Source: a virus (Duplodnaviria; Caudoviricetes). Taken from it: a stretch of DNA of 64,000 bases. This document shows positions 8,233-24,988 of this stretch, one piece after another. Numbering within the stretch: position 1 is the stretch's first letter; every line of letters begins with the position of its first letter. The notes beneath the pieces were generated by a model. It did no database searches. It saw nothing but the letters and a program-made list of their open reading frames with translations, and was not told the origin of the DNA. The DNA lies in IMG/VR virus record IMGVR_UViG_2894272399_000002, positions 17,174-81,173 of that record; one strand, 5' to 3'. Made by a program: the position numbers and the translations under genes.

Positions 8233-8239
8233 TTTTTTA

Positions 8240-8932
8240 TTATGGAAGTATGCTTTTTAACAATGCAGATGCTTCCTCCTTGGAAGCCTCCTTTCCGGCC
8301 GCGCCACCTGTCGGAGTGTATGGCCTTTGAGATTGACCCAAACCCTGATCATTAATGGACTGGGAAATTTCAGCTAAATCAGCCTCGGTTTCAGTGATGT
8401 AAGTGTCAAAGTCTTCATCCTTTTCGAATGAGATCCGTCCAAAGTCTTTCAGGATCTTCGCTTTGATCTTTTCAGGAGCGTCCTTAATTTTTGATTCAAG
8501 AATTTGTTTCCTTGACTCGGAAGTTTTGCCGGATTCGATGGCTGTTAGCTTGTCAGAGAGTTTTTTATTTTCCTCAGCTTGCGCTTTCTGGCTCTCAATC
8601 AAAGCTTTTGCCCACTCTGGCACCTCGTCTGAATCTTTTTTTGTAGTCTTTTTGGCGGTTTCGGATTCGACCCCGTCAGATTTCGCTTTTTCAGCGGCTG
8701 TTTTGTCTTCTTCCTCTTTATCCTTTTTAGCTTTTTCAGCAGCGGCGATGCGAGCATCGATTTCGGATTGGAAAACTTTCAATATCGGACCGACCCCGTC
8801 AACAGCTTCTTCGATTTCGGTTTCTTCTTTTACGCTTTTCTCTAAATAGTCGAGAACCGCATTGATGGCTTTTTGGCTGTACCCAAGCGATTTATACTTG
8901 TTTACGAGAACCACTTTGATTTTTTCTTTCAT
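8240..8932 (-). CDS. Capsid scaffolding protein
   Basis: Charged and helical, with VPEWAKAL motif; start placed at ATG 8932. Confidence 0.72.
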   Translation of the reverse strand: MKEKIKVVLVNKYKSLGYSQKAINAVLDYLEKSVKEETEIEEAVDGVGPILKVFQSEIDARIAAAEKAKKDKEEEDKTAAEKAKSDGVESETAKKTTKKDSDEVPEWAKALIESQKAQAEENKKLSDKLTAIESGKTSESRKQILESKIKDAPEKIKAKILKDFGRISFEKDEDFDTYITETEADLAEISQSINDQGLGQSQRPYTPTGGAAGKEASKEEASALLKSILP

Positions 8933-8970: not shown

Positions 8971-9113
8971 CAAATATAAAAATAAATATATTCTAAAAAC
9001 AAATGTATTTAAATCATTAAAGAAAATATTTTATTGTCATTTGATGACATTAAAGAATAATATTAAAATGAATATCAATTTATATATGTTTTATTTCAGA
9101 ATGTATATATTTG
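8971..9113. promoter_or_regulatory. Divergent late promoter region
   Basis: TATATTTG (-7 consensus TAnnTTTG) at 8971-8978 on minus and 9106-9113 on plus. Leftward -33 TTTG with 21-nt spacer. Central palindrome TGTCAT-TTG-ATGACA at 9035-9049. Confidence 0.75.
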
Positions 9114-9140
9114 CATAATAACACACACTAAGAGAAGGTA

Positions 9141-9590
9141 ATGCGATTGATCAGCACAGTGCTCACACTACTGTTAATGTTGTCAACCCTGGGATCACTT
9201 CAGGCGCAGACTACATTCACCATTACCATCCCTCAGGACGTAGCCACTAAAGAGTGGGTTCAGGATTACGTCAAAAAGAAGATTGATAGCCTGAACGCTA
9301 TTCAGCATGCCCCATTCCCGCCCTGCACTCAAGGCCCCGAGATACGCGAGATAATAACTGCATCGAAAGACTACCTAACCGTAAAATTCCACGGTGTGAA
9401 TGTCACCTCGCTGGACTACATCATTTTCAATAACGCCCAAATCAGAACGGGGCGATTAAAGCCTGAGTCAAGCACAATCAAATTCAGCTTTAAAGAACTT
9501 CCAACCGGGACGTATTCACTGACCCTGAGCGGCGGAATGTGCACAGGTTCAGACACAAAGACATTTAAGATTAAGAACAACACACTATAA
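9141..9590 (+). CDS. Signal-peptide protein with ATxxWV motif and one Cys-pair Ig-like domain
   Basis: Signal ends LQA|Q; VATKEWVQDY; C-x2-GP...G-x2-C domain. Confidence 0.75.
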   Translation: MRLISTVLTLLLMLSTLGSLQAQTTFTITIPQDVATKEWVQDYVKKKIDSLNAIQHAPFPPCTQGPEIREIITASKDYLTVKFHGVNVTSLDYIIFNNAQIRTGRLKPESSTIKFSFKELPTGTYSLTLSGGMCTGSDTKTFKIKNNTL

Positions 9591-9591
9591 A

Positions 9592-12168
9592 ATGAAGGGC
9601 ATATTTCGTTTACTTCTCTTACTGATATCGCTGCCTGCGCTGAGCCAGTCGACAATCACAGTGCCTTCTTCGGGTACGGTCGCGACCGAGGCATGGGTAA
9701 AAGAATACTTCTTCGAGCAGCTTGAAAAGTATGCAATCTCTGATTGTGACCTCAAAGCTGTCGACGTTACTCATGACGGTACGTCGCTTGAATTTGGACT
9801 GTCGGGCACACCTCCGGATCTGAACAATTATTCCGTCCGAATCACCAAAGGCTCGCAGATCTGGTATTGGAATGATATCCCATATGTTGCAGGTGAACGA
9901 CTAAGGATCGAAAACGTACCAAGCATTGATTCAGCTAGGGTAACGATCCGCCCGGTCATTCGACCTACCTGTTACTATTCTTTTGGTTATAATCTTGGAG
10001 GGGGTGAAAATCCGGATCCCGGGGAAGATACGACTGTCGTCACTCCTGTTTGTCAGGCTGGCCCGACGATCCTGTCTGTATATAATGTAACAGCATCAGG
10101 TCTTACTACCCAGTTTCACGGTAACGGCGTAACCCTTTTACAATATAAGGTAAAAGATGGTACCGGTGCGACCATACGCACAGGTCAGATAGCGCCATCT
10201 TCTTCCATTCTGAATATTGGTTTCTCTTCTGACATTACGGCCGGAAGCTACACGCTCAGGCTTGAAGGTGTTTCCTGTATTGGATTTAGTGAAAAACAGT
10301 TTACCCTTGAAGTTGGCGGTGGTGGGCCGCCCCCTTCCGGTAATGTCGTAGCCAAACAGGTAACCAAAGGTCTGCCCGAACACATGAACCTGGTGATTAC
10401 CGGGACAGGTGCAGACAAGAAGATCACAGACCTTGCCACAATCACTCCTCCCGACGGATACGAATTCCGTTATTTTATCAACGACCAAGTTGTTAAGCAG
10501 TCGACAAGGCTTATCAACTACCCCTGGCCTTCCGAAGTCCCTCTTGCAGTCTACAAGTTCCAGATCCGGCCAGATGTAAACAGCATTTATACATGGGGTT
10601 ACGATGAAGGCTGGAAAGACCCGAACGCGGGACGGACATTCAGCTACAATACAACTTGCGCTTTTGCCACGTTCGTTTTCGACGACGAAGCATCAGGATA
10701 TAATTCTTCCAAGCGGGTTCCGCAATGGATGGATTACCTGCCCGATATGCCCGCAACAGACGGGAAGATCTGGGTTATGCCAAAAGGCCCGATCAACACG
10801 ATCGATCAGCTCACCTCAAAGGGAGTAACCAACTTTTCAAACTACGAGATTGCCAGTCTTTCAAGTGCGGAGATTAACGCGCTTGCGAATGCAGGGAGGA
10901 CGTACGACGAAGTACCTCAAACTCAAAGCCAATTAAGCCTACCTGATCGCGGTGCTGGTCAATGGAAACCTGACGGTGTTGGTTGGCCTGGCAACTGGAA
11001 TACAAGGTTCTTCGATTACACGCCAGGTCAAAGCGAACCTCTTACCAATGAACAAGGGGCAGCCAAAGGCAATCAATACTCCGTCACCCATAGGCTTGTT
11101 GTATTTGAAAACAGCGAGCAGGATCACGCGATTGGTACTCAGTGGAGCTTCTGGAAACCTTACTACCAAAACTATACTGCCCGGCATAACTCAAGATTTC
11201 CGGGAACGGCACGGGTTGCACATAATTACTTCACCGGCCCCATCAATCAATATCCTGACGGTTCATCCTGGGATAGCAAGAAAGCGGCTTACGGCTCAAA
11301 TCCTTCTGTATTAGGATATGCGAACAGGTTACAGACAAAGAACTTACTGATTGCTCCGGTTTCAGATTGGCCTCCTTCCAATATGCTTCCGGGCAACAAT
11401 ATGGAGGATGTCAATTCTGCATGCTACGGGTTGTACTTTAATGATATCGGCGATACGCCCAACAATCCTTACCGGATGATCTATAAGGCGCATTTAACCC
11501 ACAAGGTCAATAAATACCTGTTGGGATTCATGCAGACCTTTTACGAGTGGAACCCTAACAACCTGCAAGAAACCGTCTTTCCGGAAGGCAAATTCTATAA
11601 GTATGTGAAGATGCCGCATAGCCCGGCGCAGGTCATTACATACGCCTTTATCAGCCGCGTATTCCTGGATGGATTTATCCCCTTTACCGCCGCCTCGAAA
11701 ACAGACGGAAATTTCCGCTACGACAAACAATGGTGGGGAAATAGCCTCTGGTATCCCAACGGAGCCACAAGCCCACAGAATAACGATTCATTCCCATACT
11801 GGAAACAGCCGGGACAAAACGAAGCCTTTGCAACGTCAGGCTTTGAGGATGCGGTGGGGATCGGGATGTATGAATACTACAAAACATTCATGCAGACGGC
11901 TGGCGGGACTCGTCAATTCCTCCGGTACCGATTAGATGGCGGGGCATGGGTTGAAGCACAAAACAACAATCTATATGATGTTGTCGATGCTTTCTACGAC
12001 AAAAGGGCAATCGTTTTCAGTGAGGTCAAAGCCGGAAAACTGGCGGTTATGTACCTGAACCCCTATGCTGACGGAGCAGTCCGGAATCTTGAATACCAAT
12101 ACAATGGAGTCACTTATTCAATGCCTGTCGCCTCGGTGATGGTGCATGCTAAACTGCATAATTTATGA
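9592..12168 (+). CDS. Large signal-peptide protein: ATxxWV motif, Ig-like domains, aromatic-rich C-terminal domain (possible glycan binding or hydrolase)
   Basis: 858 aa; signal ends ALS|Q; VATEAWVKEY; shares the Cys-pair domain with its neighbours. Confidence 0.7.
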   Translation: MKGIFRLLLLLISLPALSQSTITVPSSGTVATEAWVKEYFFEQLEKYAISDCDLKAVDVTHDGTSLEFGLSGTPPDLNNYSVRITKGSQIWYWNDIPYVAGERLRIENVPSIDSARVTIRPVIRPTCYYSFGYNLGGGENPDPGEDTTVVTPVCQAGPTILSVYNVTASGLTTQFHGNGVTLLQYKVKDGTGATIRTGQIAPSSSILNIGFSSDITAGSYTLRLEGVSCIGFSEKQFTLEVGGGGPPPSGNVVAKQVTKGLPEHMNLVITGTGADKKITDLATITPPDGYEFRYFINDQVVKQSTRLINYPWPSEVPLAVYKFQIRPDVNSIYTWGYDEGWKDPNAGRTFSYNTTCAFATFVFDDEASGYNSSKRVPQWMDYLPDMPATDGKIWVMPKGPINTIDQLTSKGVTNFSNYEIASLSSAEINALANAGRTYDEVPQTQSQLSLPDRGAGQWKPDGVGWPGNWNTRFFDYTPGQSEPLTNEQGAAKGNQYSVTHRLVVFENSEQDHAIGTQWSFWKPYYQNYTARHNSRFPGTARVAHNYFTGPINQYPDGSSWDSKKAAYGSNPSVLGYANRLQTKNLLIAPVSDWPPSNMLPGNNMEDVNSACYGLYFNDIGDTPNNPYRMIYKAHLTHKVNKYLLGFMQTFYEWNPNNLQETVFPEGKFYKYVKMPHSPAQVITYAFISRVFLDGFIPFTAASKTDGNFRYDKQWWGNSLWYPNGATSPQNNDSFPYWKQPGQNEAFATSGFEDAVGIGMYEYYKTFMQTAGGTRQFLRYRLDGGAWVEAQNNNLYDVVDAFYDKRAIVFSEVKAGKLAVMYLNPYADGAVRNLEYQYNGVTYSMPVASVMVHAKLHNL

Positions 12169-12428
12169 AAATTGGATTCAAAATTGAAGCGGCAGATACA
12201 AATCGTATGAATCCTTGGAATGGACATAAGCACACGGATGGATGTTGGTGTCGATTAACGTACGGTTTTTGGACGGTGGATGCTGGTCGGTACTCACTGA
12301 TTGATTTTGTTCTACTCTCTGAAATGCCAAGACGCAAGTTCCACTTTTCCAATACAGTGTTCTTTTCACATCGCTACATAAGGTTGAAAATTGGAAAAAT
12401 ATTCATCGAGATCTCATTACCAGTATGA
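12165..12428 (+). CDS. Hypothetical protein
   Basis: ATGA-coupled to the previous gene. Confidence 0.5.
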   Translation: MKIGFKIEAADTNRMNPWNGHKHTDGCWCRLTYGFWTVDAGRYSLIDFVLLSEMPRRKFHFSNTVFFSHRYIRLKIGKIFIEISLPV

Positions 12429-12553
12429 CTAAAATCGAAAAAGCAATCCTCCTTGGACTTGTAGCGATCACAGCAGCCGGTATGCTGACACTTTGCTACG
12501 GAGCTTATCAAAACCAAAAAAACAGAGAAACGCATGAAGAACCCTGGGGTTAA
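12425..12553 (+). CDS. 42-aa single-pass membrane peptide
   Basis: Manual translation MTKIEKAILLGLVAITAAGMLTLCYGAYQNQKNRETHEEPWG; ATGA-coupled. Confidence 0.5.
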   Translation: MTKIEKAILLGLVAITAAGMLTLCYGAYQNQKNRETHEEPWG

Positions 12554-12762
12554 GAAAGCAACCAGTAAGCCCTGCCAGAGTTGCAAGATAAAATGTGCAA
12601 GGCCAAGGGATCCGAGGCGACCAAAGAAAGAAGATAACGAATTACCATAGTTCTTATTGTGCGGTTAATGGTGAGCAAAAGGTGTCGGAAGGTTTTCTGA
12701 CATCTTTTTAAAAGACCAAAACCCCGATCAAGAAGTAAGAATACCAAAGTACACACACGATA

Positions 12763-14829
12763 ATGAGATTCAAACACACACTATTATCCTTATTGCTTTC
12801 ATTCTCCTGCTTTGCTCAGGTAGATCTGCATATCCCAAACGCTGGCAACGCAGCTACAAGGGAGTGGGTAAAGGTGTATTTGGATGAGTGGCTTACCCGC
12901 GTGCCCCCACCGGTTATCAATCCTCCCGCCGACACTGCGAGCGGGCTTCCTGCATGCACATCCGGGCCGATTATCAATTCAGTAAGCAATGTCACGAAGA
13001 CGAGCCTCAAAGCTTCTCTTTCCTTCACGGGCGTCACGAGCCTTAACTGGGCAATCTATAAATCTTCGGCGCCTGGTTTGATTTTAAAATCCGGCAACAT
13101 CTCGCCACTGAACGGTACAAACAATATTAATTGGGTGGGTGACCTCGTTCCGGGCGAACATGTATTGAAAGTTTACGGTGTCAATTGCACAGGTGGTTCG
13201 ACTTCCAATTTCATTTTAAGCTCAACTCCTACCCCTCTGCCTTGTACTGCTGGGCCGGTTATTCTGAACCTATTCAATGCAACTAGAACTGGATTAATCT
13301 TTGAATGGTCGGGGCTCAATGTCCCTGAAATTGTTTGGACAATCAAGCAGGGGGCGACCACAATCCGGTCAGGTTCGTTTGTGACTTCCGGAGCGCAGAC
13401 TATCAATATCAGCTACACGCAGCTTGGGTTTGGAACGTACGACCTGCAGTTGAACGGGCTTACCTGCCCTACCCAGACAGCAGCAAGGTCATTTACGCTG
13501 ATTGACAACACTCCTACCCCAACAACGGCAAGAGCATTTTATCTGAACCTGACAGGTTACGGATGGGATCAGGAAGACCCTACTGGCATTCGAGTTGACA
13601 ATCGAAACATGATTGACGCCTTTGTCAACATGAATTACCAGGGAACCAACTTTAAAGGGATTCAGGGCCTTCGCATAAACATCAAATGGTACGAGTACGA
13701 GCCATCAGAAGGAAACTTTCAGGACTCCCGGTTGCTGGCAATATTGAACTGGTGCAAATCCCGTGGAATTAAACTTTCGGTAGCTCTCATTCCATGGAGA
13801 CGCGAGGGAGATAACATGATCCCAAATGGACACAAATCAACGCTGATCAATGACCGTATCTGGTATGCAGAAGGTTCGTTGCAAGATTTGACCACCTACA
13901 AAACCTATCAACCAAGCACCCAGAGCCCTATTGGACGGGAGAAGTTCAGACGCGTCGCACGGCACATGGCCCAAACGCTAAATCAGTTCCCTAATGATGT
14001 CGACTACATCTCCACGGCAACCGCGCTTACGGAAGAGTATCAGTTGATCCGCGATGAAAGCCCTATGCTGATGACTGGATACAGCCAGATCGATAAGGAA
14101 GCTTGGAACACGTTCGCGGGAGGACTGCCTGTCCCATATCCTGCTAGTTACTCGGATGTTTCAAGCATCGAATCAATGATGTCGACTAGTAACGGTCGAA
14201 AATGGTACGAATTCCAGACAAAAGGGCTCAAAGATTTTCATGCTGAATTCGTCGCAGGCGTCAAAGAAGGTGGACTCAGGGCTTGCGGAATGTATGCTGG
14301 TGCAGGGGCCCCTTCCGCTGTTTATGATTTCACTTACAAGCTCAACGAGATATACAGCGCCGGGCAACCCAATCAGCCGAACATCATCTATTCATCCGAA
14401 GGTGATGCCGGTAGCCAAGGAAGCAAGCTCATGGCAACTGACCTGAACATGGGCACATTCCCAGCGTCGAACTATGCAATTGAATTTGACCCAGAAGACA
14501 TCGCTGCGAATCAGGTGCACAATCCGCCCTACGGAATCGATTTGAACGGGAACCTCCTTTATCAATATGCATCATCATTTTTCCGGAGAGGTGGCAACAT
14601 CGTTCATTTCGCAATGTCTTTCGCCCCGAACAAGCTTCATCAGATTTATGAGGCAATGTTCAATCTGCGAAACCAATTCATCGACACTAACTCGGGAATG
14701 ACCGGAATTGATCAAGGAACACCATTCAACTTCCCGATCACAAATTATACAGGAATGCAAGGATATCGCGGACAATGGTCGGCAAACGGAGGCGGGTTGA
14801 ACAAACAAGTCAAATTCACATTGCAATGA
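12763..14829 (+). CDS. Signal-peptide glycoside hydrolase (TIM-barrel, GH42/GH35/GH14-like) with two Cys-pair Ig-like domains
   Basis: Signal ends CFA|Q; AATREWVKVY; LRINIKWYEYEPSEGNF...L...GIK motif. Confidence 0.7.
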   Translation: MRFKHTLLSLLLSFSCFAQVDLHIPNAGNAATREWVKVYLDEWLTRVPPPVINPPADTASGLPACTSGPIINSVSNVTKTSLKASLSFTGVTSLNWAIYKSSAPGLILKSGNISPLNGTNNINWVGDLVPGEHVLKVYGVNCTGGSTSNFILSSTPTPLPCTAGPVILNLFNATRTGLIFEWSGLNVPEIVWTIKQGATTIRSGSFVTSGAQTINISYTQLGFGTYDLQLNGLTCPTQTAARSFTLIDNTPTPTTARAFYLNLTGYGWDQEDPTGIRVDNRNMIDAFVNMNYQGTNFKGIQGLRINIKWYEYEPSEGNFQDSRLLAILNWCKSRGIKLSVALIPWRREGDNMIPNGHKSTLINDRIWYAEGSLQDLTTYKTYQPSTQSPIGREKFRRVARHMAQTLNQFPNDVDYISTATALTEEYQLIRDESPMLMTGYSQIDKEAWNTFAGGLPVPYPASYSDVSSIESMMSTSNGRKWYEFQTKGLKDFHAEFVAGVKEGGLRACGMYAGAGAPSAVYDFTYKLNEIYSAGQPNQPNIIYSSEGDAGSQGSKLMATDLNMGTFPASNYAIEFDPEDIAANQVHNPPYGIDLNGNLLYQYASSFFRRGGNIVHFAMSFAPNKLHQIYEAMFNLRNQFIDTNSGMTGIDQGTPFNFPITNYTGMQGYRGQWSANGGGLNKQVKFTLQ

Positions 14830-14866
14830 CTTCCCTTCCACACATGAACATTTTAAAAGAAGACCA

Positions 14867-15193
14867 ATGGAAGAATTATTAAGGAACCTGGGGGTTAAGG
14901 CCGAAAATATGCTCATGTCATTTTTTGCCGCCACCATATTTGTGATTATCAGGATCTACGAGCCCGAAGTGCCCCTATCCCGAAGAAAGGTGATATACGT
15001 GATCACTTCCGGAGCGGCTACGGCTTTGTTAGTCCCTGGCTTAGTGGTGTATTGGTTTAAAGTCGATAATGCATTCATGGCCGGGTTTGCTACCGCCGTG
15101 GTAGTGCTCTCATTCGAGTTTATCGTGCAGATAATTAGGGAAAAAGTAATCAGAAAGCTAAAAGACAAAGATGATGGAACTACAATTCATTGA
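14867..15193 (+). CDS. Holin-like protein (3 TM)
   Basis: Three hydrophobic segments and a basic C-terminus; upstream of endolysin. Confidence 0.7.
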   Translation: MEELLRNLGVKAENMLMSFFAATIFVIIRIYEPEVPLSRRKVIYVITSGAATALLVPGLVVYWFKVDNAFMAGFATAVVVLSFEFIVQIIREKVIRKLKDKDDGTTIH

Positions 15194-15512
15194 ATGGATC
15201 GTAAAGGGAGTAACTGTGTTGCTTTGCGGCGGAGTCCTTGCTATTACGCTCATATCGCACAACACATTAAAGACGAAGAACCGGGATGCAGTGAAAGAGC
15301 AAATCCGTCGGTCTAACGGAGATACCCTGGGAGGTAAGATATTTTTTTACTGCATCATCCTGTTTTGCCTGAATGGGTTCTATTGGGGGTTGACGGTGTT
15401 TACGCAAGGCTTTTTAACTGCTGCGATTGTAGCCGAAAGACTTATCACTTACAGGATTTGCAGAGCAAACAAGGACGGGTTAGGGCGGTTTTTGGCTCGT
15501 ATTGATTGGTAA
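15171..15512 (+). CDS. Second lysis-cassette membrane protein (holin/antiholin-like)
   Basis: 2-3 TM segments; overlaps holin and endolysin. Confidence 0.55.
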   Translation: MMELQFIEWIVKGVTVLLCGGVLAITLISHNTLKTKNRDAVKEQIRRSNGDTLGGKIFFYCIILFCLNGFYWGLTVFTQGFLTAAIVAERLITYRICRANKDGLGRFLARIDW

Positions 15513-15955
15513 TGAAGACACAAAAGCAGTTAATCGAGAAGTTCGGCAACCCGGCGGTAGATAACATCACATTTGAAAGAAAATGGATGACATTATGGCA
15601 TGTTCCGGAAGCTATCGGTGATCATATTCCGGCTATTCCTGGTAAGATATACCTCAATAATCTGATCAAAGAACGCCTTGAAACGACTTTGTTCGCATTG
15701 ATAGAAGCTGACCTTCATTCGGAGATTAAAACATTTGACGGCTGCTTCAACATACGCAAGAAACGGGGACTAGAAACACTTTCCTTACACGCCTTTGGGA
15801 TAGCAGTAGATCTTAACGCGGCCTGGAACCAATTAGGCAAGCCAAGTACCTGGAGTAATGATTTTATTGAAGTATGGCGGCGCAATGGATGGGAATGTGG
15901 CGCAGACTGGAAGGGACGGATTGATGCAATGCACTTCCAATGGGATAATTTTTAA
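15506..15955 (+). CDS. Endolysin, M15 family zinc peptidase
   Basis: SLHAFGIAVD (SxHxxGxAxD) and DAMHFQ motifs. Confidence 0.88.
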   Translation: MVMKTQKQLIEKFGNPAVDNITFERKWMTLWHVPEAIGDHIPAIPGKIYLNNLIKERLETTLFALIEADLHSEIKTFDGCFNIRKKRGLETLSLHAFGIAVDLNAAWNQLGKPSTWSNDFIEVWRRNGWECGADWKGRIDAMHFQWDNF

Positions 15956-15961
15956 CACACT

Positions 15962-17023
15962 ATGAATAAGGTTAAACACGCTTTTTGCTTCCCTGGTGGT
16001 GGTTTTAAAGGGGCCACGCAAGTAGGCTTTCTGAAAGCTGCCATAGAGCACAATATCCATGCAGACATTATCAGCGGCACTTCCGTCGGAACGCTGGTAG
16101 GAGCTTTTGCGGCTATGCGCAAGTACAATTTACTTTTCGACCTATGGGATCATGTAGGTAAAACGAATGGTTCTATCATCACAAAAACCTATCTGGCTGA
16201 GCTTCGTGACGGAGGTGTTTATCCAAACATCGACCAGATTAAAGACATTCTTACAAATGGGATTGGCTTCAAAGACAAGATCGGGTTAATCACCAAAAAA
16301 GGCCAGCAGAAGTTTATCCAGAAAGTAATCGAGAACGGTAAATCCATCGATAAAATCATGGACAACAGCCCGCTCTTCGACTTACTGACACAACACGTAT
16401 TCAAAAAAGACTTTCAGGCTGACTTCCATTTCACGCTGGTGAGCCTTTATGACGGGAAGTTGTACAAGGTCAATCAAAACAGCTTTGCCGATGATCATAA
16501 CCTTCGTCTTGGCATGCTGGCAAGTACCGCAATGCCCGGAGTATGGGCTCCGATTCCATGGATCAGGTTAGCCGACGGAACATTTATCCGGGACGCGGTG
16601 GACGGTGGACTCAGAATGTCCAGCCCGCTTCCGCTGATTATGTCAAAGCTCACAAAAGGAAATCCATGGAAGGTTTACACTCCGAACGCAAATAGTATCT
16701 ATCAGTCAATCAATGATCAGAAAAAGAATCTGGTCACCCAGGCGGCTTCTGCTATTGATATACTTCTCAATGAGGGGCTTCAACGGGATATCAAAATGAC
16801 CGAGAAGATCAACGAATGGGCTTTGAAGTATCCGGAATGGGCAGAGAAGGAAGGGATTGTATATGCCGAGCTCTTCAACATCGAAGTGCCGCTCAACGAG
16901 AGAGGCGAAAGTTTGCTCGGTCGAACACTTGACCCGCGGGCAGAATGGATTGAAAAGCGGATCCAGATCGGGTACGAAAGCGCGACTAAGATTTTCCAAA
17001 ACCTTTCAACTCAGGCGGCATAA
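15962..17023 (+). CDS. Patatin-like phospholipase
   Basis: GGGFKG, GTSVG (GxSxG) and DGG motifs. Confidence 0.9.
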   Translation: MNKVKHAFCFPGGGFKGATQVGFLKAAIEHNIHADIISGTSVGTLVGAFAAMRKYNLLFDLWDHVGKTNGSIITKTYLAELRDGGVYPNIDQIKDILTNGIGFKDKIGLITKKGQQKFIQKVIENGKSIDKIMDNSPLFDLLTQHVFKKDFQADFHFTLVSLYDGKLYKVNQNSFADDHNLRLGMLASTAMPGVWAPIPWIRLADGTFIRDAVDGGLRMSSPLPLIMSKLTKGNPWKVYTPNANSIYQSINDQKKNLVTQAASAIDILLNEGLQRDIKMTEKINEWALKYPEWAEKEGIVYAELFNIEVPLNERGESLLGRTLDPRAEWIEKRIQIGYESATKIFQNLSTQAA

Positions 17024-17313
17024 TGGGCATTTTAATAGGCATGGGCAACATCAACACAGGGTCATTTAAAGCGATGATCAATTCTATGCTTGGCATCCCA
17101 TCAGGGATTACGAAGGCCCAGCTTCGCTCGACCGATATGGATACATCGAGTATTGTCTCTGTGACTGACATCGGTGATAATTCGGTTGCGATCTTTCTGC
17201 CTGACGACACGGAAAGCGAAGACGACGGAGAAACAATATTGGTCGACTCGGTAGGCAAACGATTTGAAATTAAGCCCTTAAAAGACGTAGTACTTAATTC
17301 CCCGTATCAATAA
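17023..17313 (+). CDS. Small fibre/tailspike-adaptor-like protein without signal peptide
   Basis: N-terminus MGILIGMG; LR...DDTESEDDGETILVD..GKRF resembles the N-domain of the next gene. Confidence 0.55.
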   Translation: MGILIGMGNINTGSFKAMINSMLGIPSGITKAQLRSTDMDTSSIVSVTDIGDNSVAIFLPDDTESEDDGETILVDSVGKRFEIKPLKDVVLNSPYQ

Positions 17314-17321
17314 ACACACTA

Positions 17322-19502
17322 ATGAAAAAGACACTCACACTATTTTGTTTTTTACTGAATAGCCTTTCCGCTTTCTCTCAAACAACACCCGAGGCGAAAG
17401 CAAAAGCTTCGATTGCCAAGATATCAGACAACACAATCAAGGCTATAAAGCCATCTGACTTCAGGAATGCATACACCGACATCCTGAACTTGGCTATTTC
17501 CCGGGCACCCTTTCTTTCAATGAAAGATCTCCGCCTGGGCAAAGCTGATACCGCCCGGGTAGTATTGATCAATGAAGGCGGAAGATCAGGACAGTTCATT
17601 TATGACCCAACGGACACCACAAGCCCTGACGATTCAGCAATGGTGATCAGGTATGGCGCAAGAAGGTATAAACGCCCATTACAGGAGTATGTGACACCTC
17701 TGTCATTCGGCGCTGTTGGGGATAGCGCCACTGATGACGCATCGGCAGTCCGCAAAGCCGCGGCATTTGCCACTGCCAAGAAACGCACATTGCTCATTGA
17801 AGCAGGATATGTGTTTACCCTTAATTCGACTGTGCTTTTTGGTTGCAATGTCGATGGTTACGGCACAATAAAAACTCGTAACAGCGCGTCATTTACAGCG
17901 AATGCAAGTAATATGACAATTAAAAATATTACGATAACGGGTAAACACGCTAACGTAATCGCGGGCCGTGGCTTGTACATCAGTTACGCTTCAAATGTGG
18001 TCGTTGACAATGTCAAGGCAGTCAGCACCATCAGTCAGGGCATATATTTTCTTGGGGGCGTAAATATTAAAGCTGTCAATTGCCGAACAGCAGAGCAGAG
18101 AGGGGAGTATGGTGATGGGATTTATTTTGGCGCTGCCACGAACCCGTCCGCTGCAAACTGTTTCGTTCGTGATTTTCAACGCGTAGGGATTGTTTTTGAA
18201 CAAGGCTGCACCAGTGCTATTGCGATAGGCAACACTGTCAAAGATAGCTATCCCGCATGGTCTTCACAGTTCAATGGGGGGATATGGGGTGAGAAAATCA
18301 AGGGAGCGATATTCGCAAACAACTACATTGAAAATGTAAGGGATAAATCGCTTACCCTCTCACCGAACTCAACCACTACTGCCGGCAAAACTTATAGTTA
18401 TATCGTTTCCGGAAATACAATGGTCAAGAGCGCCGAAGGATTTGGGTTTGCCTTTTCAGAGGACCAGATTTTAAATTACAGTGACAACACAACGATCGAT
18501 GTTCGACGGGGAACAGAAATTGGCCCTTGCCTTGAAGCCACGCTTTCCAACTCCACATTTGCTCTGAGAGATTCATCAGCGAGCTGGTTTTCTGAGCTAG
18601 TCCGGTTTGTCCCGATCACTACAACCGGCAAAAAGACGAAGCTGACCATAGACAACTGTAAGAATTATATTAATGGAGGTGCCGCAGTTTTAATTACAAA
18701 CGTTGCAGCCCACAAAGGCGATTTGACAGTTCAGAATTGCCGAACCGGAAACTGGGCTTTCCTGCAACAGCCGGTAACACTTGAAGGAGACGTCAATTTC
18801 TTCAATTCGAATGCAGACTTTACAGTACTCGGCAGTACTCAGCGATATTTGACGAACAGTATAAATGCCACCTTCCGGGAAAGCAATTTAAAAATAGACA
18901 AAACCAACACTCTCTTGTTGCAGGGGGCAAAAGTTGAGTTCATCAACTGCAATATTACAGCTGATTCGACCAGTCAAATACAATTTGGAGTGTTTGGAGC
19001 GGAAAACGTTCGGTTCGAAAGTTGCAAAATTGATAAAGTGAAGCTTTACAATATACGCAAGAACGTTACAAAGCTGTACTTGATCAATAACGAGTTCACA
19101 GACTACCAGTCCGAAGGGATTTTTAATACAGTCGTCGTATCACTCAACACCCTGGACGTGCGAGGCAACAAGTTCAGCAGCACACTAACGACCAACGCCC
19201 CGATCCAGCTTTTCAACGGCGCAGTAAACACAGCCTTTGGAATCAATTCATTCACGAGCTCCACCTTGGTGACTCAGTTTTCTCCGAAATATGATTTCGC
19301 GGCCAGGTTGACGAATACATCCACTAGTGTCCCGAACAAAACATCGTTGAATACATCTTATGGGGGATATAAAGGCGGAACAAAGGTTGTTTATCGATTC
19401 ATTTCGACCGGCGCAAGAAGCTATGAAAAAAACGACGATTCGGCGACGTCAGATTGGGAGGAAACCATCTATTCAACAGGCATAAAAAGCTTTTTGCCTT
19501 AG
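17322..19502 (+). CDS. Signal-peptide tailspike-like right-handed beta-helix depolymerase (pectate lyase 3-like)
   Basis: Signal ends AFS|Q; FIYDPTDTTSPDD tailspike N-domain; FGAVGDSATDDASA motif; beta-helix repeats. Confidence 0.82.
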   Translation: MKKTLTLFCFLLNSLSAFSQTTPEAKAKASIAKISDNTIKAIKPSDFRNAYTDILNLAISRAPFLSMKDLRLGKADTARVVLINEGGRSGQFIYDPTDTTSPDDSAMVIRYGARRYKRPLQEYVTPLSFGAVGDSATDDASAVRKAAAFATAKKRTLLIEAGYVFTLNSTVLFGCNVDGYGTIKTRNSASFTANASNMTIKNITITGKHANVIAGRGLYISYASNVVVDNVKAVSTISQGIYFLGGVNIKAVNCRTAEQRGEYGDGIYFGAATNPSAANCFVRDFQRVGIVFEQGCTSAIAIGNTVKDSYPAWSSQFNGGIWGEKIKGAIFANNYIENVRDKSLTLSPNSTTTAGKTYSYIVSGNTMVKSAEGFGFAFSEDQILNYSDNTTIDVRRGTEIGPCLEATLSNSTFALRDSSASWFSELVRFVPITTTGKKTKLTIDNCKNYINGGAAVLITNVAAHKGDLTVQNCRTGNWAFLQQPVTLEGDVNFFNSNADFTVLGSTQRYLTNSINATFRESNLKIDKTNTLLLQGAKVEFINCNITADSTSQIQFGVFGAENVRFESCKIDKVKLYNIRKNVTKLYLINNEFTDYQSEGIFNTVVVSLNTLDVRGNKFSSTLTTNAPIQLFNGAVNTAFGINSFTSSTLVTQFSPKYDFAARLTNTSTSVPNKTSLNTSYGGYKGGTKVVYRFISTGARSYEKNDDSATSDWEETIYSTGIKSFLP

Positions 19503-19548
19503 GAATCGCAGTCGCTTAAAAAAGTAACAAACACACACGCTATATAAA

Positions 19549-21585
19549 ATGAAAAAAATGCTTTTGTGGCTTGTCCTGATCCTTTCAGGCCTTGCCGGTG
19601 AAGTTCAAGGTCAAAACCCGGAGGGATACATCCGGAAGATCCTCAAAGACGGACGTATAATTACTGCCGTACGGGTTGATTCTTACGCTGAAATGCAGGG
19701 TCAATGTTTTGTTGGAAGCCCGAAGCAATTTGTTGTGGAGACAGATGAGCATTCTGAGGGAAATAATGTATTGTATTACTGGGACGGATATTTGCTTCAT
19801 ACTGGGGGCCCAGGTACGGGTGGCGGTGGAAGCCAAGGCCCACCGGGGATTCAGGGTATTCAAGGCCCACAAGGGATTCAAGGGTTAAAAGGCGACAAGG
19901 GTGATCCAGGGGAACGCGGCCCGCAAGGGATTCAGGGCCCCACGGGTCTGACAGGAGCGACGGGGCCTGCTGGAATCGCTGGGGCTGCCGGAACAGCTGG
20001 GGTGAAAGGGGATAAGGGGGATACGGGAGCCACGGGGGCTACCGGTCCTACTGGCGCAACCGGACCTGCCAACACGAATGCTTCCGCACTCGAATCCGGA
20101 ACGGTACCGCTGGCAAGATTGCACTCAAGTGTACTCACTGAAACCAACGCCTTAGCTCTATCCAATAAAACGATCGATGGGAACAACAATGCTTTGAATG
20201 TACTTCAAAGCCAAATTCAAGGCTGGGCAGCAGCGATGGCTGCAAAAGTCAGCACGACCGGGGACGAGTCAGTAGCAGGCATAAAAACATGGTCGAAAAC
20301 ACAAAGGTTTACCGATACTTGGGCAAATAAGCCGCTGATCGTCGGTGTAACAGGCCAGTCTGGCGTAATTGCTTTCGCAAGGGGTTCGGATGGTTCTACA
20401 CAGGCGCGGTTTGGATATAAGTCTCAGGGCGAGAATAATATCATTGAAGCGTTTGCACCTGGTGGATCTGGCGCATTTGAAATAAACACGAACGGCGGAA
20501 CAGGCCTAAAAGTATTTTCGGACGGAAGGACAGTCGTAGGCCGGGGTATAACCTTAACCAATGATGCTCATTACGATTTTCAATCAAAGGGGCCAACCTA
20601 CGTGGGCTCTGCATTGAAAGTAGCAGGTAGTTTTGAAACCAACTCAGACAGTATAAAGGTATTCGCCAATAATGACGCAGCTATTGCTGGAGGGGTGAAG
20701 GTTAACCAGTGGTATTATCAGGTACTTCCTGACGGGGAGTGGGCGCCAAGGATCGCACACGCCGTTAACACTGAACCTATCTTTGGAGAGAAGGCAAGTA
20801 GTGGCACAACTCGGATATTTTGGGAGGGCTCTACGATGGAGCAGTCCTACAAGGCTCAATCTCCTAATTTAGACCACAATATAAGAAGGGCTACCAATAA
20901 AACTTCCCCGGTATATAGGTTTGAAATAAGGAGATTTGAAAACTGGGCCACAGACTCTGTAAACAATAATACTCAGAATGGGCAGTACAAGGAGCGTACA
21001 GAAATGTATCAAGAGGGGGTATCTATCCCCTTCAATCAGGATGTCTGGGTGTCTTATTCTGTTTACATAGAGCCAGGTGGAGATATATCCTATGGAGGAA
21101 ACCAGGATTTCTACTGCATGTTGGGGCAGTGGCATCCTGGCGATGGAGTCCCGAGCGGGGGTCCTTCCTGGGGTATTGAATTACTGGGGCAGGGAAGTCT
21201 TAATCTTTTCACAAGAGGTCAGGATACATTGGTCCCCCCATTCTCTGGTGGAAGACCTTGGGCGGTGGACAGAGCCAATATTACCGTATCAAGAGGTGCG
21301 TGGCATAATATCGTAGTCCGGGCGAGACACAATAAAAGTGTGGGTCAGATTGACTGGTGGGTTGATAACAACCCTACCCCAGTTTATTCGGGAACAAACA
21401 TTCCGATAGGAAATAATCACACTACAATTGGATACTGGAAGTTCGGGATTTATCGGACAACCAATGTGAATGCGTTGGCAGTGAGGTACGCCAACGTGGA
21501 AGTAAAAGTCGACGCTACCAACAGTAACGCCGTCAATGGCAACACCCTCAAAGGAAGAGTTGCTTCGCCATTACCAATCAATTAA
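19549..21585 (+). CDS. Signal-peptide collagen-like fibre with C-terminal polysaccharide lyase-like domain
   Basis: Signal ends VQG|Q; 27 Gly-X-Y triplets; RFEIR, ERTE, GQWH and YWKFGIYR motifs. Confidence 0.8.
19828..20070 (+). repeat. Collagen-like Gly-X-Y repeat, 27 triplets
   Basis: Counted in the translation, GSQGPPGIQ...GATGPA. Confidence 0.9.
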
Positions 21586-21597
21586 CCATACACACAC

Positions 21598-21981
21598 ATG
21601 AAAAATCTCATTATAGTATTCTCACTATTGTTAATGGCGACCGTTTCACAGGCCCAGACAATCCGAAAAGGCTTGGTTACTTCCATTATGGCGGCCGGCC
21701 GCATTACAGATGGACAAGAGGTAGTCGCGGCAGACCTTCCATACTTCAAAAGCCAGGGAGCATTCTTTTCGATTATGATTGTTCCCAAGGACGTGGAAAA
21801 TGTTAAAGAAATTGAGATTATCAAAGCGCGGTATTACCAGGGGGAAGCTATTCGTAACATTCCATTGATGGTCAACTCTTGGAATACGGTGATGCTCGTG
21901 GAGATCGACGACGACAACGAGGCCTTGTTCGAAGACTATAATGTTTACGTTGGCTTCGGCGATGATGTGCCAGGCTTGTAA
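21598..21981 (+). CDS. Small signal-peptide protein, possible head-spike base or fibre adaptor
   Basis: Signal ends SQA|Q; beta-rich, ending YNVYVGFG; precedes a fibre gene. Confidence 0.6.
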   Translation: MKNLIIVFSLLLMATVSQAQTIRKGLVTSIMAAGRITDGQEVVAADLPYFKSQGAFFSIMIVPKDVENVKEIEIIKARYYQGEAIRNIPLMVNSWNTVMLVEIDDDNEALFEDYNVYVGFGDDVPGL

Positions 21982-21996
21982 AATACACACTAAAAT

Positions 21997-23808
21997 ATGA
22001 AAAAGATACTTCTATTGCTGCTTCTGGCAGCCAATGTCACACATGGTCAGTTTATTGGGGCACCAAGGAGGGGTTTGTCAACTTCCGGCAGTGGTGGCGG
22101 ATCTGAAACTGATCCTGTTTTTTCCGCGTCTCCCGCTGCTGGGATAACGTCGCCAAACATTACAAATTGGCTTTCCGCTTATAGCTGGGGAAATCATGCA
22201 TCCGCTGGTTATCAAATTACATCAAACCTAAGTACTGACTTAACACCCAATGCGAGCAAGTATCCCAATGTTAATGCTGTAAATACCGGCCTTGGGCTAA
22301 AGGCGAACCTTGCTGGAGGTGCTACATTTTCAGGTACTATTATAATGCCGTCTACTTTCTCCGTTGGGACGGTGTCGGCAACAGAGATATCTTATCTTGA
22401 TGGCGTTACTACATCGATCCAGGCGAATATTGATTCCAGGGCCCCAAACAACCTAAATGGGTATGTGTCTGGCGCTGGAACGGTCACTTCCACCGACACC
22501 CCGCTTCAAGGTATACAGAAGCTTAATGGTAACGACGCGTTAAAAGCGAATTTAGCCGGTGGCAATACATTTACTGGTACACAGTCTTTTCCCTCGACGA
22601 CATCGATCGGAAATGTATCTTCTACCGAAATTGGCTACGTTGATGGAGTAACGTCATCAATTCAAACCCAACTTGATTCAAAGGCATCGGCGAACAATGG
22701 AACCTTGACAGGCACGACGACAACAGCGAACCTTGTGCCTGCATCTAACGGGACCTCCGACTTAGGAACGATATCAACCAGGTATTTAAACGGCTATTTC
22801 AACCGTATCAATGCAGGGGGAACACTCACGCTTATATCTGCTGGCACGAGCGCTATGCAGTTCAGTAATACTTCAACGACGTCGGGATTATTTGCTCAAT
22901 TCGCGCCGATTACTAACGAATTGATGTTGCAATCCCCTGGGACTTCTTTTGGAACCAACTCTGGTCATAGATTTCAAAACTTTGGAACATCCCGGTTTGC
23001 GGGTAATGCACTGTTTGAGTCGAATATTCAAATGTCGGCGTTGCCTGCCATGGGTACAAAACCCGCAGGTGTTCTGGTTGCAGACGGATCGGGTAACATC
23101 AGCAGCCGGACAAATGCCCAGCATTTCGCTGACATCAATGAAATCCAAAACTTCAAAAGGGTAGCGGGATGGGAAGCCCAGGGTAATGGATCGACCGTAA
23201 ACTCTGCTGGTCTGGCCGTAACAGCAGAAGGAACAGCCACGGCTCGAAGTGTGGCAACTACCAACTTTTATACAGGCATGCGTCGCCTGAATTACGTAGG
23301 AGCGACGACCGCAAACGCACCAGCAGGGATACGAGGCAACAACGCACAGTTCCAGGTCGCTCGGGGATTCTCGTTCCGTGCAGTTTTTGGTATTCGAGCG
23401 TACAACGCCGGACATAGGTATTATGTAGGCATGGGCGAGGACGCGGATAATACAGTCGATCCTTCTGCTCTCGTGAACAGGCTCAACATGTACGCAGATC
23501 CAGGCGATGTCACATGGAAAATACGTGGAGCGAATGCGTCACAAGGAACCGCCATCGATCTGGGCGCAAACTTCCCAGTTAACACGTCCGAAACAGATTT
23601 TTATGATGTGACCTTCAATTGTGAGCCAGGCGCGACTACGGCCACCTATTTGGTAAGAAGACTAAACACCGGAGATACCGCATCCGGAACTATCAGCACA
23701 GTTCCATCCGCTGTCTTAATCCGTCCGCAGGTGATCGCTGGTAACGCGGCAACGGGAACAGCCGCAAGTATTGACATTGCGAGGGTGGTGGTTATAACAG
23801 AGAATTGA
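21997..23808 (+). CDS. Signal-peptide tail/head fibre-like protein
   Basis: Signal ends THG|Q; ETDPVF..AYSWGNHA motif; two KANLAGG...TEIxYxDGVTxSIQ fibre repeats. Confidence 0.75.
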   Translation: MKKILLLLLLAANVTHGQFIGAPRRGLSTSGSGGGSETDPVFSASPAAGITSPNITNWLSAYSWGNHASAGYQITSNLSTDLTPNASKYPNVNAVNTGLGLKANLAGGATFSGTIIMPSTFSVGTVSATEISYLDGVTTSIQANIDSRAPNNLNGYVSGAGTVTSTDTPLQGIQKLNGNDALKANLAGGNTFTGTQSFPSTTSIGNVSSTEIGYVDGVTSSIQTQLDSKASANNGTLTGTTTTANLVPASNGTSDLGTISTRYLNGYFNRINAGGTLTLISAGTSAMQFSNTSTTSGLFAQFAPITNELMLQSPGTSFGTNSGHRFQNFGTSRFAGNALFESNIQMSALPAMGTKPAGVLVADGSGNISSRTNAQHFADINEIQNFKRVAGWEAQGNGSTVNSAGLAVTAEGTATARSVATTNFYTGMRRLNYVGATTANAPAGIRGNNAQFQVARGFSFRAVFGIRAYNAGHRYYVGMGEDADNTVDPSALVNRLNMYADPGDVTWKIRGANASQGTAIDLGANFPVNTSETDFYDVTFNCEPGATTATYLVRRLNTGDTASGTISTVPSAVLIRPQVIAGNAATGTAASIDIARVVVITEN

Positions 23809-23812
23809 TTTC

Positions 23813-24346
23813 ATGAAACAGACGATCAAAATACACCTCCTCGAATACAACACGGGACAAATTGAAGGACTTCCGGCGAATCCTCGGTTTATCAAGGACG
23901 ATAAATACGAAAAGCTTAAAATGAGCCTTCAGGAAGATCCCGAGATGCTTGAATTACGGGAATTGCTGGTTGTGCCTCTGGACAAAATCTTCGTGGTGAT
24001 CGCAGGAAACATGAGGCTCCGTGCTGCCAGTGAGCTCGGAATAAAAGAACTACCCTGTAAGGTGATCGCTGCAGGAACTGATCCTGCAACACTTCGTGCG
24101 ATATCGATCAAAGACAACATCAGCTATGGAAACCACGATTGGGATATGCTCGCCAACGAATGGGAGGTTGAAGAACTCGAACATTGGGGGCTGGACATCC
24201 CGGATCTTGGAGCCGACGAAGAAGAAGCACCCAACACTGAAAAGATCCTGTCAAAAAAGCTGATCATCGAGTGTGGCGATCTGAACGAACTTGAAAAACT
24301 ATACGGCGAATTGCAGGATAGAGGTTTTGTCTGCTCGCTTAAATAA
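23813..24346 (+). CDS. ParB/Srx N-terminal domain protein
   Basis: NPR, VIAGNMRLRA and KDN motifs; typical position before terminase. Confidence 0.85.
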   Translation: MKQTIKIHLLEYNTGQIEGLPANPRFIKDDKYEKLKMSLQEDPEMLELRELLVVPLDKIFVVIAGNMRLRAASELGIKELPCKVIAAGTDPATLRAISIKDNISYGNHDWDMLANEWEVEELEHWGLDIPDLGADEEEAPNTEKILSKKLIIECGDLNELEKLYGELQDRGFVCSLK

Positions 24347-24988
24347 TTGACCATGACCGACCCACGAAGAAAAGATAAACAGATCGCAGAAGCCAGACGC
24401 GTGATCGTCGCCGAGTGCTATAAAAGGGGCATGACGATCCGGCAAACCTGCGAGGCTGTCATGAAACAAATGAGTTTGGATGGGCCGCCCAGCACCAAAA
24501 CGATTTTCAACGATCGGGACTTCCTTCTCAAAGAATGGAAGAAGGAAAGGATTCAAGATGTGGATGACATGCTCCAACTTGAACTAACCCGGATTGACGA
24601 TATCATCATTGAGCTTTGGGAGGCCTGGAAAAAGTCAAAAACCGATTACAAATCAAAATTCTCCAAACAAAAAGGCGAACTGCCCGCGGGTGTTTCTCAC
24701 GATAGGGATATCGATAAGGAGGAAAGGAAGCGCATTAAAGCAACGTATGCAGAGCGCGGAGAAAGGGAAGAAATTATGTTCGGAGATCCGAGGTATTTAT
24801 CAGAGATACGCTTCCAGCTCATAGAAAGAAGAAAGCTTTTGGGGCTATACGCTCCGGAGAAAAAAGAAGTAACAGGAGCGGGAGGAAAAGACCTTCTACC
24901 AGAGAGGACACAGGATATCAGCATGCTTACAGCCGAAGAGAAAGCCATCCTTTTAGACATTGCACGGAAAGTTGATAGAACAAAGTAG
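24347..24988 (+). CDS. terS: Terminase small subunit
   Basis: N-terminal HTH; RRKLLGLYAPEKKEVTGAGGK; upstream of terL. Confidence 0.75.
   Translation: MTMTDPRRKDKQIAEARRVIVAECYKRGMTIRQTCEAVMKQMSLDGPPSTKTIFNDRDFLLKEWKKERIQDVDDMLQLELTRIDDIIIELWEAWKKSKTDYKSKFSKQKGELPAGVSHDRDIDKEERKRIKATYAERGEREEIMFGDPRYLSEIRFQLIERRKLLGLYAPEKKEVTGAGGKDLLPERTQDISMLTAEEKAILLDIARKVDRTK

Follow-up and report, generated by a model that had tools for sequence, protein, structure and literature searches.

A conserved late-operon block of fiber- and depolymerase-like proteins with host-type export signals in a siphovirus-type prophage

Results

Seven signal-bearing ORFs lie among the lysis genes and upstream of the packaging genes

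The window analyzed here is a 64,000-nucleotide stretch of the IMG/VR virus record IMGVR_UViG_2894272399_000002 (positions 17,174 to 81,173), which corresponds to G000:C37:135113-199112 of a 39-contig, 8.4-Mb genome. It is enclosed by a large temperate prophage of siphovirus type. The host is probably a Dyadobacter (Cytophagales, Bacteroidota), because the closest named homologs of two proteins of the block described below carry that genus annotation; orthologs are present in same-genus genomes. The plus strand from 9141 to 30328 holds seven open reading frames (ORFs) with predicted signal peptides, two small ORFs, lysis genes, a patatin-like gene and a 96-aa ORF, and then the packaging genes (Table 1). 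The seven ORFs, named here by their start positions (9141, 9592, 12763, 17322, 19549, 21598 and 21997), had been singled out in a preliminary description of this DNA, and their coordinates, plus-strand orientation and signal N-termini were verified. The same description had them surrounding the lysis genes and running co-directionally into terminase and portal, which is the arrangement we find: two holin-like ORFs, an M15 endolysin and the patatin-like gene lie inside the block, and ParB, TerS, TerL, portal and MuF genes follow on the plus strand. The block sits between the scaffold gene and ParB/TerS, not after the tape measure, Dit and Tal genes as fiber genes of a tail module would.

The residues around the predicted cut are, in gene order, LQA/Q, ALS/Q, CFA/Q, AFS/Q, VQG/Q, SQA/Q and THG/Q (cut at the slash). 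We called signals with a crude heuristic of our own, which asks for K/R and no D/E in the n-region, an h-region of nine uncharged residues with a mean Kyte–Doolittle hydropathy of at least 1.9, and small residues at −3 and −1. This heuristic flags 7/7 of the named ORFs, with Gln at +1 in 7/7. Among ORFs of at least 90 aa, 7 of 12 in the block (9141-23808) are signal-like; the prophage outside the block has 3 among 72 (Fisher p 1.8e-5), one of which is a doubtful internal start. Genome-wide, 1132 of 4215 host ORFs of at least 250 aa (27%) are signal-like, and 471 of the 1132 (11% of the 4215) carry Q at the candidate +1 position. The clustering is real; because the host background of signal-like ORFs is high, the type of signal is ordinary for this host, and it is the position of the signals that is unusual.

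Judged from sequence, the N-termini are supported as canonical signals for Sec export and signal peptidase I (SPI) with the Bacteroidota +1 Gln. No ORF of the seven has a lipobox Cys at +1, none has a twin-arginine n-region, and none matches Por_Secre_tail or another C-terminal sorting-domain model of the type IX secretion system (T9SS) in Pfam or NCBIfam. ORF 12763 is slightly ambiguous as to lipoprotein because of a Cys at −3 (SFSCFA, then Q) that is kept in orthologs, and a host paralog of its C-terminal domain on contig C35 has an end that, by eye only, resembles a T9SS sorting domain. With no lipobox, no twin-arginine translocation (Tat) signal and no T9SS domain, the predicted destination is the periplasm, barring an unknown route. 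The +1 Gln preference, or Q-rule, and its stabilizing effect on extracytoplasmic proteins are treated in PMC5837995 and PMC10653852. The type-I glutaminyl cyclase family PF05096, the one cyclase family searched for, was not found in the genome.

The signals are conserved along with the bodies. Signal and Q are kept in 11/11 homologs of 9592 (58–100% identity), in which the signal sequence itself drifts and the mature start QS(T/V)ITVPSSG..ATE.WV is conserved, and in 4/4 members of the 21598 family. A same-genus genome (G201) and two IMG/VR contigs (L102 and L103) share this architecture, block included; in them, orthologs of 9141, 9592, 12763, 21598 and 21997 and a 19549-like fiber bear signals; signal-bearing 9141 orthologs come from G201 and L102, and those of 12763 from all three. 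That small-x-small and Gln are kept in all orthologs makes sense only if SPI cuts there. Eight signal-free members of the 9141 family start with Met at the predicted cut site of the signal-bearing members (+1 to +3). Different bodies also share two classes of mature N-terminus whose conservation lies directly at the predicted cut.

The block shares its leader and strand with late genes

For the seven genes, the upstream in-frame stop lies 1–21 codons before the signal ATG, which is itself 1–46 nt past the stop of the previous gene or comes after a short leader. In 7/7 genes the ATG has an ACACA(C/T)A leader 6–20 nt upstream; the same leader precedes the major capsid protein (MCP), major tail, scaffold-like, MuF and patatin genes, and is missing from translationally coupled ones. 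The suggestion that signal and capsid genes have a late ACACAC motif in common therefore holds up: the window contains 15 copies of ACACACA versus 5.06 expected, and 0/100 shuffles reach 15. Across the whole 8.4-Mb genome, 10 of the 58 genes with ACACACA no more than 25 nt upstream belong to the prophage. The leader is possibly a phage-specific signal for translation initiation or processing in a host without strong Shine–Dalgarno use. At distances of 6–30 nt it lies upstream of 4799(−), 7796(−), 8932(−), 9141, 9592, 12763, 15962, 17322, 19549, 21598, 21997 and 28643. The start spacing, the leader, the retention of signals in orthologs and the signal-free family members that begin at the cut site all suggest that the signals are translated and used.

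The leftward head–tail operon and the rightward operon are separated by a promoter-like intergenic region with Bacteroidota −7-type boxes (TAnnTTTG) at 9106-9113 (+), 8971-8978 (−) and 9000-9007 (−), and with ACACACA at 9121 (+) and 8943/8956 (−). Because such boxes are not above chance window-wide (39 found, 49 expected), their placement alone counts. In consensus scans, no box falls in the intergenic gaps inside 9141-24400 and terminator-like sites in the block are at chance level (16 versus 16.5 expected). Most junctions from 23813 to 30328 overlap or leave a gap of at most 4 nt, so that these genes form the downstream part of the same packed strand. Box placement, the terminator scan and the tight spacing together favor one late transcript over independent cassettes.

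Fiber, spike and glycanase-like bodies follow the signals

Homology to known fiber or spike families was found for 17322, 19549 and 21997, and none was found for 9141, 9592, 12763 and 21598. The bodies had been described as a beta-helix, a collagen fiber with a lyase tip, fiber repeats and a glycoside hydrolase; sequence comparison recovers the first three, and the glycoside hydrolase (12763) is seen by structure comparison only.

ORF 17322 matches PHROGs for colanic acid degradation, tail and tail spike, and weakly phi92 gp150 (E 2.1e-4). Residues 70–124 of it resemble residues 34–90 of the signal-free 96-aa ORF that precedes it (the 17023 stub), which is 39% identical to a 102-aa stub of L102. 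ORF 19549 matches tail-fiber PHROGs mostly over its collagen part, and its residues 23–83 resemble stand-alone, signal-free ORFs of 128–136 aa in three sister elements. ORF 21598 gave no confident fold (predicted local distance difference test (pLDDT) 44.5, 4 sequences); in this prophage, G201 and L102 it always stands directly upstream of a fiber with the mature N-terminus Q(L/F)(I/L)G..RRG(V/L), which also occurs on 740- and 732-aa lyase fibers of G201 and L102.

The body of 21997 is a fiber with wide relatives. Residues 388–603 have tblastn matches to Rhodobacter phage RcKemmy, Curvibacter phage P26059A and Flavobacterium phage 11b, and its distant homologs comprise 115 fiber-like proteins, many with PF18454, of which 0/115 are signal-like. 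One relative, P0014, shares 71% identity with 21997 overall, a figure that rises to ~95% across the last 220 residues; it has an ordinary 76-aa N-terminus where 21997 has its signal and QFIGAPRRGL; P0014 was not found in 300 family genomes. Sequence searches of the Protein Data Bank gave nothing meaningful for 21997 or 12763.

The lyase of 19549 has four host paralogs. Two, both ~760-aa signal-free proteins, lie at G000:C37:60847-63102 and 67941-70253, 65–75 kb left of the prophage and inside a glycosyltransferase/exopolysaccharide (EPS) cluster; a third ~760-aa lyase-tipped protein is on C22, and a 360-aa signal-bearing one on C11. We considered the three ~760-aa proteins as fibers of other prophages and rejected this, since their context is a glycosyltransferase/EPS cluster. 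The presence of lyase paralogs in that cluster suggests that the target of 19549 is the host's own polysaccharide.

An N-terminal cassette is joined to unrelated C-terminal families

ORF 9141 and the N-termini of 9592 and 12763 share a cassette consisting of a short strand, an amphipathic helix (ATKEWV..Y), a linker and an FN3-like sandwich with an invariant Cys pair. The AlphaFold model of 9141 (mean pLDDT 85.9) has a helix at 37–51 and seven strands at 64–144, and its best Foldseek matches are FN3 domains (E about 1e-3); C62 and C134 are invariant in 20 sequences. The family has 128 representatives at E ≤1e-3, and among 127 examined 67 are signal-like and 49 have Q. In the 37 proteins that we compared, the cassette is fused to at least four unrelated C-terminal families. 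A conserved N-terminus with variable C-termini is the pattern of receptor-binding proteins. Pfam searches with ten large members of the family returned nothing above cut-off. Signal-free cassette proteins were not found in viral or metagenome contigs, and two of them, P0168 and P0227, had no tblastn match in 50,697 phage records.

Neither 9592 nor 12763 has a tblastn match in the same 50,697 records. ORF 9592 lacks a Pfam, PHROG or Protein Data Bank sequence match, and its C-terminal domain, poorly modeled, gives weak TIM-barrel leads only. For 12763, which has no Pfam sequence match, residues 255–688 match Glyco_hydro_42 clusters in the Atlas (TM 0.63–0.73), and the modeled body is a GH42/35-like barrel by structural comparison only.

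Stub-and-body arrangements recur in sister elements and distant genomes

The gene after patatin differs among the sister elements. G201 (839 aa) and L103 (687 aa) encode one signal-free protein there that starts MGI(F/V)..G.GD, and the L103 protein is a near full-length match to the tail-fiber phrog_4201 (E 3.2e-84). In our prophage and in L102, the place is taken by a stand-alone protein of 96–102 aa with the same start, followed by a signal-bearing tailspike. The association of a stub with a signal-bearing body, and of the fused form with absence of a signal, is consistent in 4/4 loci.

Among IMG/VR fiber-repeat ORFs with complete 5′ ends, 5 of 77 are signal-like, three of them Bacteroidota-style with Q. 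Their source records are a myovirus-type one that is 88% complete (G301) and two complete ones with direct terminal repeats (G302 and G303). In G301, the sole large fiber-like ORF encodes an 884-aa protein with signal and Q (hydrolase and tail-fiber PHROGs) and has baseplate wedge genes on both sides. Behind the gpI-like gene, a 154-aa ORF aligns with tail-fiber PHROGs over their first 50–100 positions only, holding just the N-terminal domain of a tail fiber. G302 has one fiber-like ORF with signal and Q just before the lysis genes and G303 has three in a row, in both cases at the end of the tail module; a signal-bearing ORF within a tail module was found in L098, G301 and G302.

A different signal-bearing ORF occurs in Bacteroidales terminase relatives. 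In 8/8 of these (L004, L006-L010, L015 and L016), an ORF of ~200 aa with signal and Q and the mature start (V/I)YDGITQPT sits just upstream of ParB/PAPS-reductase/TerS, which is the same relative position as that of the block.

Lysis cassette and neighboring genes

The M15 endolysin and the patatin-like phospholipase are both signal-free, and the patatin-like gene is kept at the same place in G201, L102 and L103. The lysis cassette (15962-17023 context) showed no spanin-like lipoprotein, and the patatin-like product may serve in lysis by disrupting the outer membrane or lipids. Of the two small ORFs between 9592 and 12763, the 42-aa one (12425-12553) has one hydrophobic segment and is start–stop coupled (ATGA) to the 87-aa one (12165-12428); it is too short to appear in ORF lists with a 60-aa limit.

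On the left, the tape measure gene runs out of the window into the adjoining 20 kb (L001), where it is followed by a ~10-kb island of unrelated ORFs, a Dit-like ORF (407 aa), a Tal-like ORF (1181 aa; Prophage_tail PF06605, E 9e-8), a tyrosine-recombinase-like integrase and host infB. The island (L001 ~8,900–19,300) contains XRE/ImmA-like, RuvC-like, P-loop-like and membrane ORFs and is an odd cargo site; two more signal-bearing ORFs lie in it (10703-11161, minus, and 18971-19354, plus). On the right, TerL matches phrog_38 (E 1e-88), and the MuF-like protein (28643-30328) strongly matches a PHROG named Bxa ADP-ribosyl transferase and, below cut-off, resembles RelA/SpoT (PF04607) in a C-terminal stretch.

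Table 1. Features of the window discussed in the text
Feature	Position	Strand	Basis
Head–tail operon: scaffold-like, MCP, connectors, major tail, chaperone-like, tape measure	3..8932	−	PHROGs
Tape measure	from 3482, exits window leftward, ends in L001	−	phrog_9959, E 4e-154
Major-tail-like gene	4293-4799	−	
MCP	6708-7796	−	phrog_29, E 5e-36
Scaffold-like gene	start probably ATG 8932	−	
Divergent promoter-like intergenic region between leftward head–tail and rightward signal/lysis/packaging operons	8972..9140 (169 nt)	.	Motif scan
149-aa signal protein; mature TTFTITIP..ATKEWV helix, FN3-like sandwich	9141..9590	+	N-terminus, AlphaFold, Foldseek
858-aa signal protein; N-terminal cassette, FN3-like repeats, large C-terminal domain without family	9592..12168	+	
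Two small coupled ORFs (87 aa and 42 aa)	12165..12553	+	
688-aa signal protein; N-terminal cassette, two FN3-like repeats, putative GH42/35-like TIM barrel	12763..14829	+	Atlas structure comparison
Holin-like membrane ORFs	14867-15193, 15171-15512	+	Size, hydrophobic segments and position only
M15 peptidase endolysin, signal-free	15506-15955	+	Peptidase_M15_4 PF13539, E 7.1e-13; endolysin PHROGs
Patatin-like phospholipase, signal-free, directly after endolysin	15962..17023	+	PF01734, E 2.5e-18
96-aa stub, signal-free, MGI..G.G N-terminus	17023..17313	+	Similarity to sister-prophage fiber N-termini
726-aa beta-helix tailspike-like signal protein	17322..19502	+	Beta_helix PF13229, E 3.9e-11
678-aa signal protein; N-module, collagen stalk, polysaccharide-lyase tip	19549..21585	+	Collagen PF01391, Polysacc_lyase PF14099
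127-aa signal protein	21598..21981	+	
603-aa signal-bearing fiber, fiber repeats	21997..23808	+	phrog_9729 at residues 36–102
ParB-like, TerS, TerL, portal, two small ORFs, MuF-like head protein	23813..30328	+	PHROGs

Discussion

The prophage carries a conserved late-operon block of fiber- and depolymerase-like proteins with host-type export signals, and look-alikes are present in complete viral genomes. It is likely, and well supported, that the seven are exported late proteins that act on or bind host glycans outside the cytoplasm. The preliminary description went further and read them as virion parts that mature outside the cytoplasm and are added at lysis, or as enzymes released during exit. 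Sec/SPI signals, their conservation in orthologs, the shared leader, the packed operon and the fiber- and depolymerase-like bodies support this interpretation in part; they do not separate virion-added parts from free enzymes. Of the two, we tentatively prefer periplasm-matured add-on virion fibers, a sequence-based reading that we hold to be possible rather than probable and that ranks only slightly above free exported enzymes.

On the basis of the conserved signals, the layout of the operon, and the domain content and modular exchanges of its products, we propose the following course for expression, export, cleavage and docking. The seven ORFs would be expressed late, as part of the rightward operon with its lysis and packaging genes, exported by Sec to the periplasm and cut by SPI before Gln, which would presumably be cyclized as in other Bacteroidota SPI substrates. 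Folding in the periplasm would yield an accessory host-glycan module made up of two TIM-barrel-type glycanase candidates, a beta-helix, a collagen-stalked lyase, a plain fiber and two small partners. In the cytoplasm, the particle would incorporate short signal-free stubs such as 17023. Docking of the exported bodies, by the conserved N-termini that cleavage had exposed, would follow when the holin lesion connects the two compartments, or would take place in the lysate. Still more tentatively, some Bacteroidota tailed phages may generally have two-compartment side fibers, with a cytoplasmic stub and an exported, pyroglutamate-capped, periplasm-folded distal fiber or depolymerase that docks after holin opening; such an arrangement would recur in siphovirus- and myovirus-type genomes (this prophage, L102, G301, G302 and G303).

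Several observations weigh against incorporation into virions. Tailed-phage particles assemble in the cytoplasm, and the open-access literature that we searched yielded neither signal-bearing virion fibers of tailed phages nor a precedent for adding exported parts. The Dit-like and Tal-like tail-tip proteins carry no signals and are encoded apart from the block, so adsorption may not require the seven proteins. L003, a terminase relative from a Spirosoma metagenome-assembled genome that shares the inverted layout, has only lysis-type ORFs between scaffold and TerS, which makes the block accessory to, and dispensable for, particle formation. Most environmental fiber-repeat ORFs (72/77) are signal-free, 12% of G301 is missing, and in the isolated Bacteroidota siphoviruses PJN03, 11b and phi17:1 signal-like N-termini occur on small lipoprotein-like ORFs only. 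Host paralogs outside prophages exist for 9592 (among housekeeping genes), for 12763 and for the lyase of 19549. In 21997 and 17322, moreover, the signal occupies the exact place of the N-terminal fiber domain of relatives; with the usual tether domain replaced, the same facts can mean that the proteins are untethered.

Much of this would suit proteins that never enter the particle. Late, Sec-exported enzymes or receptor binders might be held in the periplasm in stable form and released at lysis, where they would cut or mask host capsule, EPS or lipopolysaccharide glycans, letting progeny out of the matrix and keeping them from being lost on debris. We hold this reading to be only slightly less probable than add-on fibers. 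It has no compartment problem to solve, and it accommodates the replacement of the anchor domain by a signal, the signal-free Dit/Tal tail tip (64% identical to its G201 counterpart), the absence of the block from L003 and the host paralogs of the enzyme-type bodies, including the lyases in the EPS gene cluster. WceF, as described in PMC7949094, shows that a bacterial exported tailspike-like EPS enzyme exists, and the Q-rule is reported to stabilize extracytoplasmic proteins (PMC10653852). Lysis, however, frees cytoplasmic enzymes anyway, so that export needs a further reason, and there is no T9SS domain or lipobox to carry the proteins past the periplasm before lysis. Collagen stalks and fiber repeats are odd in soluble enzymes; together with the lack of a recognizable enzyme domain in 21997, they fit a tethered fiber better than a free enzyme. 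The conserved stubs, which accompany signal-bearing bodies in two phage lineages, the conserved mature N-termini, the viral genomes whose only fiber candidate bears a signal, and the similar genes at the end of the G302 and G303 tail modules likewise speak for docking.

Two further explanations appear unlikely. If the genes were morons expressed from the resident prophage, their exported products would remodel the surface glycans of the lysogen, for superinfection exclusion or nutrition. Morons typically encode exported proteins, the host has a large secretome (27% signal-like), host paralogs exist, a clear moron island that separates the tape measure from Dit holds two more signal ORFs, and the authors of PMC10367356 so interpreted Q-rule proteins of Porphyromonas gingivalis phages. 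A single packed operon with lysis and packaging genes behind a divergent promoter-like region nevertheless argues against independent morons. In the consensus scans no separate promoter-like boxes or terminators surround the genes, the leader is common to capsid and tail genes, and the 11.5-kb block is syntenic in at least four related elements. The one wider junction with lysis and packaging genes measures 335 nt (12429-12762), and the 42-aa ORF takes up its first 125 nt (12429-12553); all others are 1–46 nt or overlap. Slightly less probable still is that the hydrophobic N-termini are unused for export, because downstream starts are taken or because they have an uncleaved cytoplasmic role (for example, as a trimer plug), and that the proteins are ordinary cytoplasmic fibers. 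Both the 9141 cassette and the 21997 body do occur without signals, so export is not needed for folding, and in the public annotation 21997 (P0013, 487 aa) begins only at Met117, without the signal and 98 conserved fiber residues, a point that also counts against virion fibers of the exported kind. Yet fiber homology in 21997 begins upstream of Met117 (a PHROG at residues 36–102, cyanophage fibers at 37–90 and P0014 from residue 28), and the public call is therefore too short. The leader marks the upstream ATG in each of the seven genes, there are few or no alternative starts between signal and conserved mature sequence, and the small-x-small motif with Gln is kept in all orthologs.

If the proteins do join virions, they would represent an undescribed assembly route in which phages turn secreted host enzymes into receptor-binding heads. 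As free proteins, they would form a dedicated secreted toolkit, made from fiber parts, for escape from the polysaccharide matrix of the host. Either way, the prediction of receptor-binding proteins and depolymerases in Bacteroidota phages is affected, because pipelines that discard signal-bearing ORFs or re-call their starts miss them, as with 21997 at Met117. The work also defines a dark family of N-terminal cassettes (128 representatives) that has no Pfam model.

Comparison with known systems

For tailed phages, structural and receptor-binding proteins are regarded as cytoplasmic. The seven proteins resemble phage tail fibers, tailspikes and depolymerases in their beta-helix, collagen stalk, fiber repeats and lyase tip, and in the mosaic exchange of bodies between sister prophages. 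They differ from them in carrying a Sec/SPI signal on every member, unlike the distant fiber homologs of 21997 (115/115 signal-free), and in being encoded next to the lysis genes and upstream of terminase, not behind the tail-tip genes. Phage multi-depolymerase sets share conserved N-terminal adaptors, to which the N-terminal cassettes on at least four unrelated C-terminal families are similar.

Exported lysis proteins of phages are known, namely Sec-dependent or signal-anchor-release endolysins and spanin lipoproteins. Like these, the block consists of late proteins with host export signals in or beside a lysis cassette, and small lipoprotein-like ORFs adjoin the endolysins of 11b, phi17:1 and PJN03. 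The known proteins are small effectors, whereas here the endolysin is signal-free and the exported proteins are large and fiber- or glycanase-like. The coat proteins pIII and pVIII of filamentous phages are virion proteins with signal peptides that are assembled outside the cytoplasm (cf. PMC4823517); inoviruses, however, are extruded through the envelope, and the capsid, portal, terminase and tape measure genes mark the present element as a tailed phage. For targets of phage diversity-generating retroelements, PMC6199706 describes proteins without signals and uses the absence of signals as an argument for phage origin.

The nearest bacterial likeness is WceF of Pantoea stewartii, a signal-bearing, tailspike-like trimeric beta-helix that acts on the exopolysaccharide of its producer (in the account given in PMC7949094). 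According to the same account, WceF is chromosomal, lies in an EPS cluster and has a Tat signal, whereas the proteins described here lie in a prophage late operon and have Sec-type signals; the lyase paralogs inside the EPS cluster of the present host are without signals.

The preliminary description knew of no characterized equivalent, which needs qualification. Q-rule signal proteins of P. gingivalis phages have been published, and none that is fiber- or depolymerase-like was found in the literature searched. Five such genes are reported (Matrishin et al. 2023, PMC10367356), with function given as unknown and a possible role as outer-membrane modifiers discussed. Like the block, they are Bacteroidota prophage genes with a predicted SPI cut that exposes Gln, and export by the general secretion system of the host was suggested there. 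What sets the present block apart is that seven fiber- and glycanase-like proteins are clustered and co-oriented with the lysis and packaging genes.

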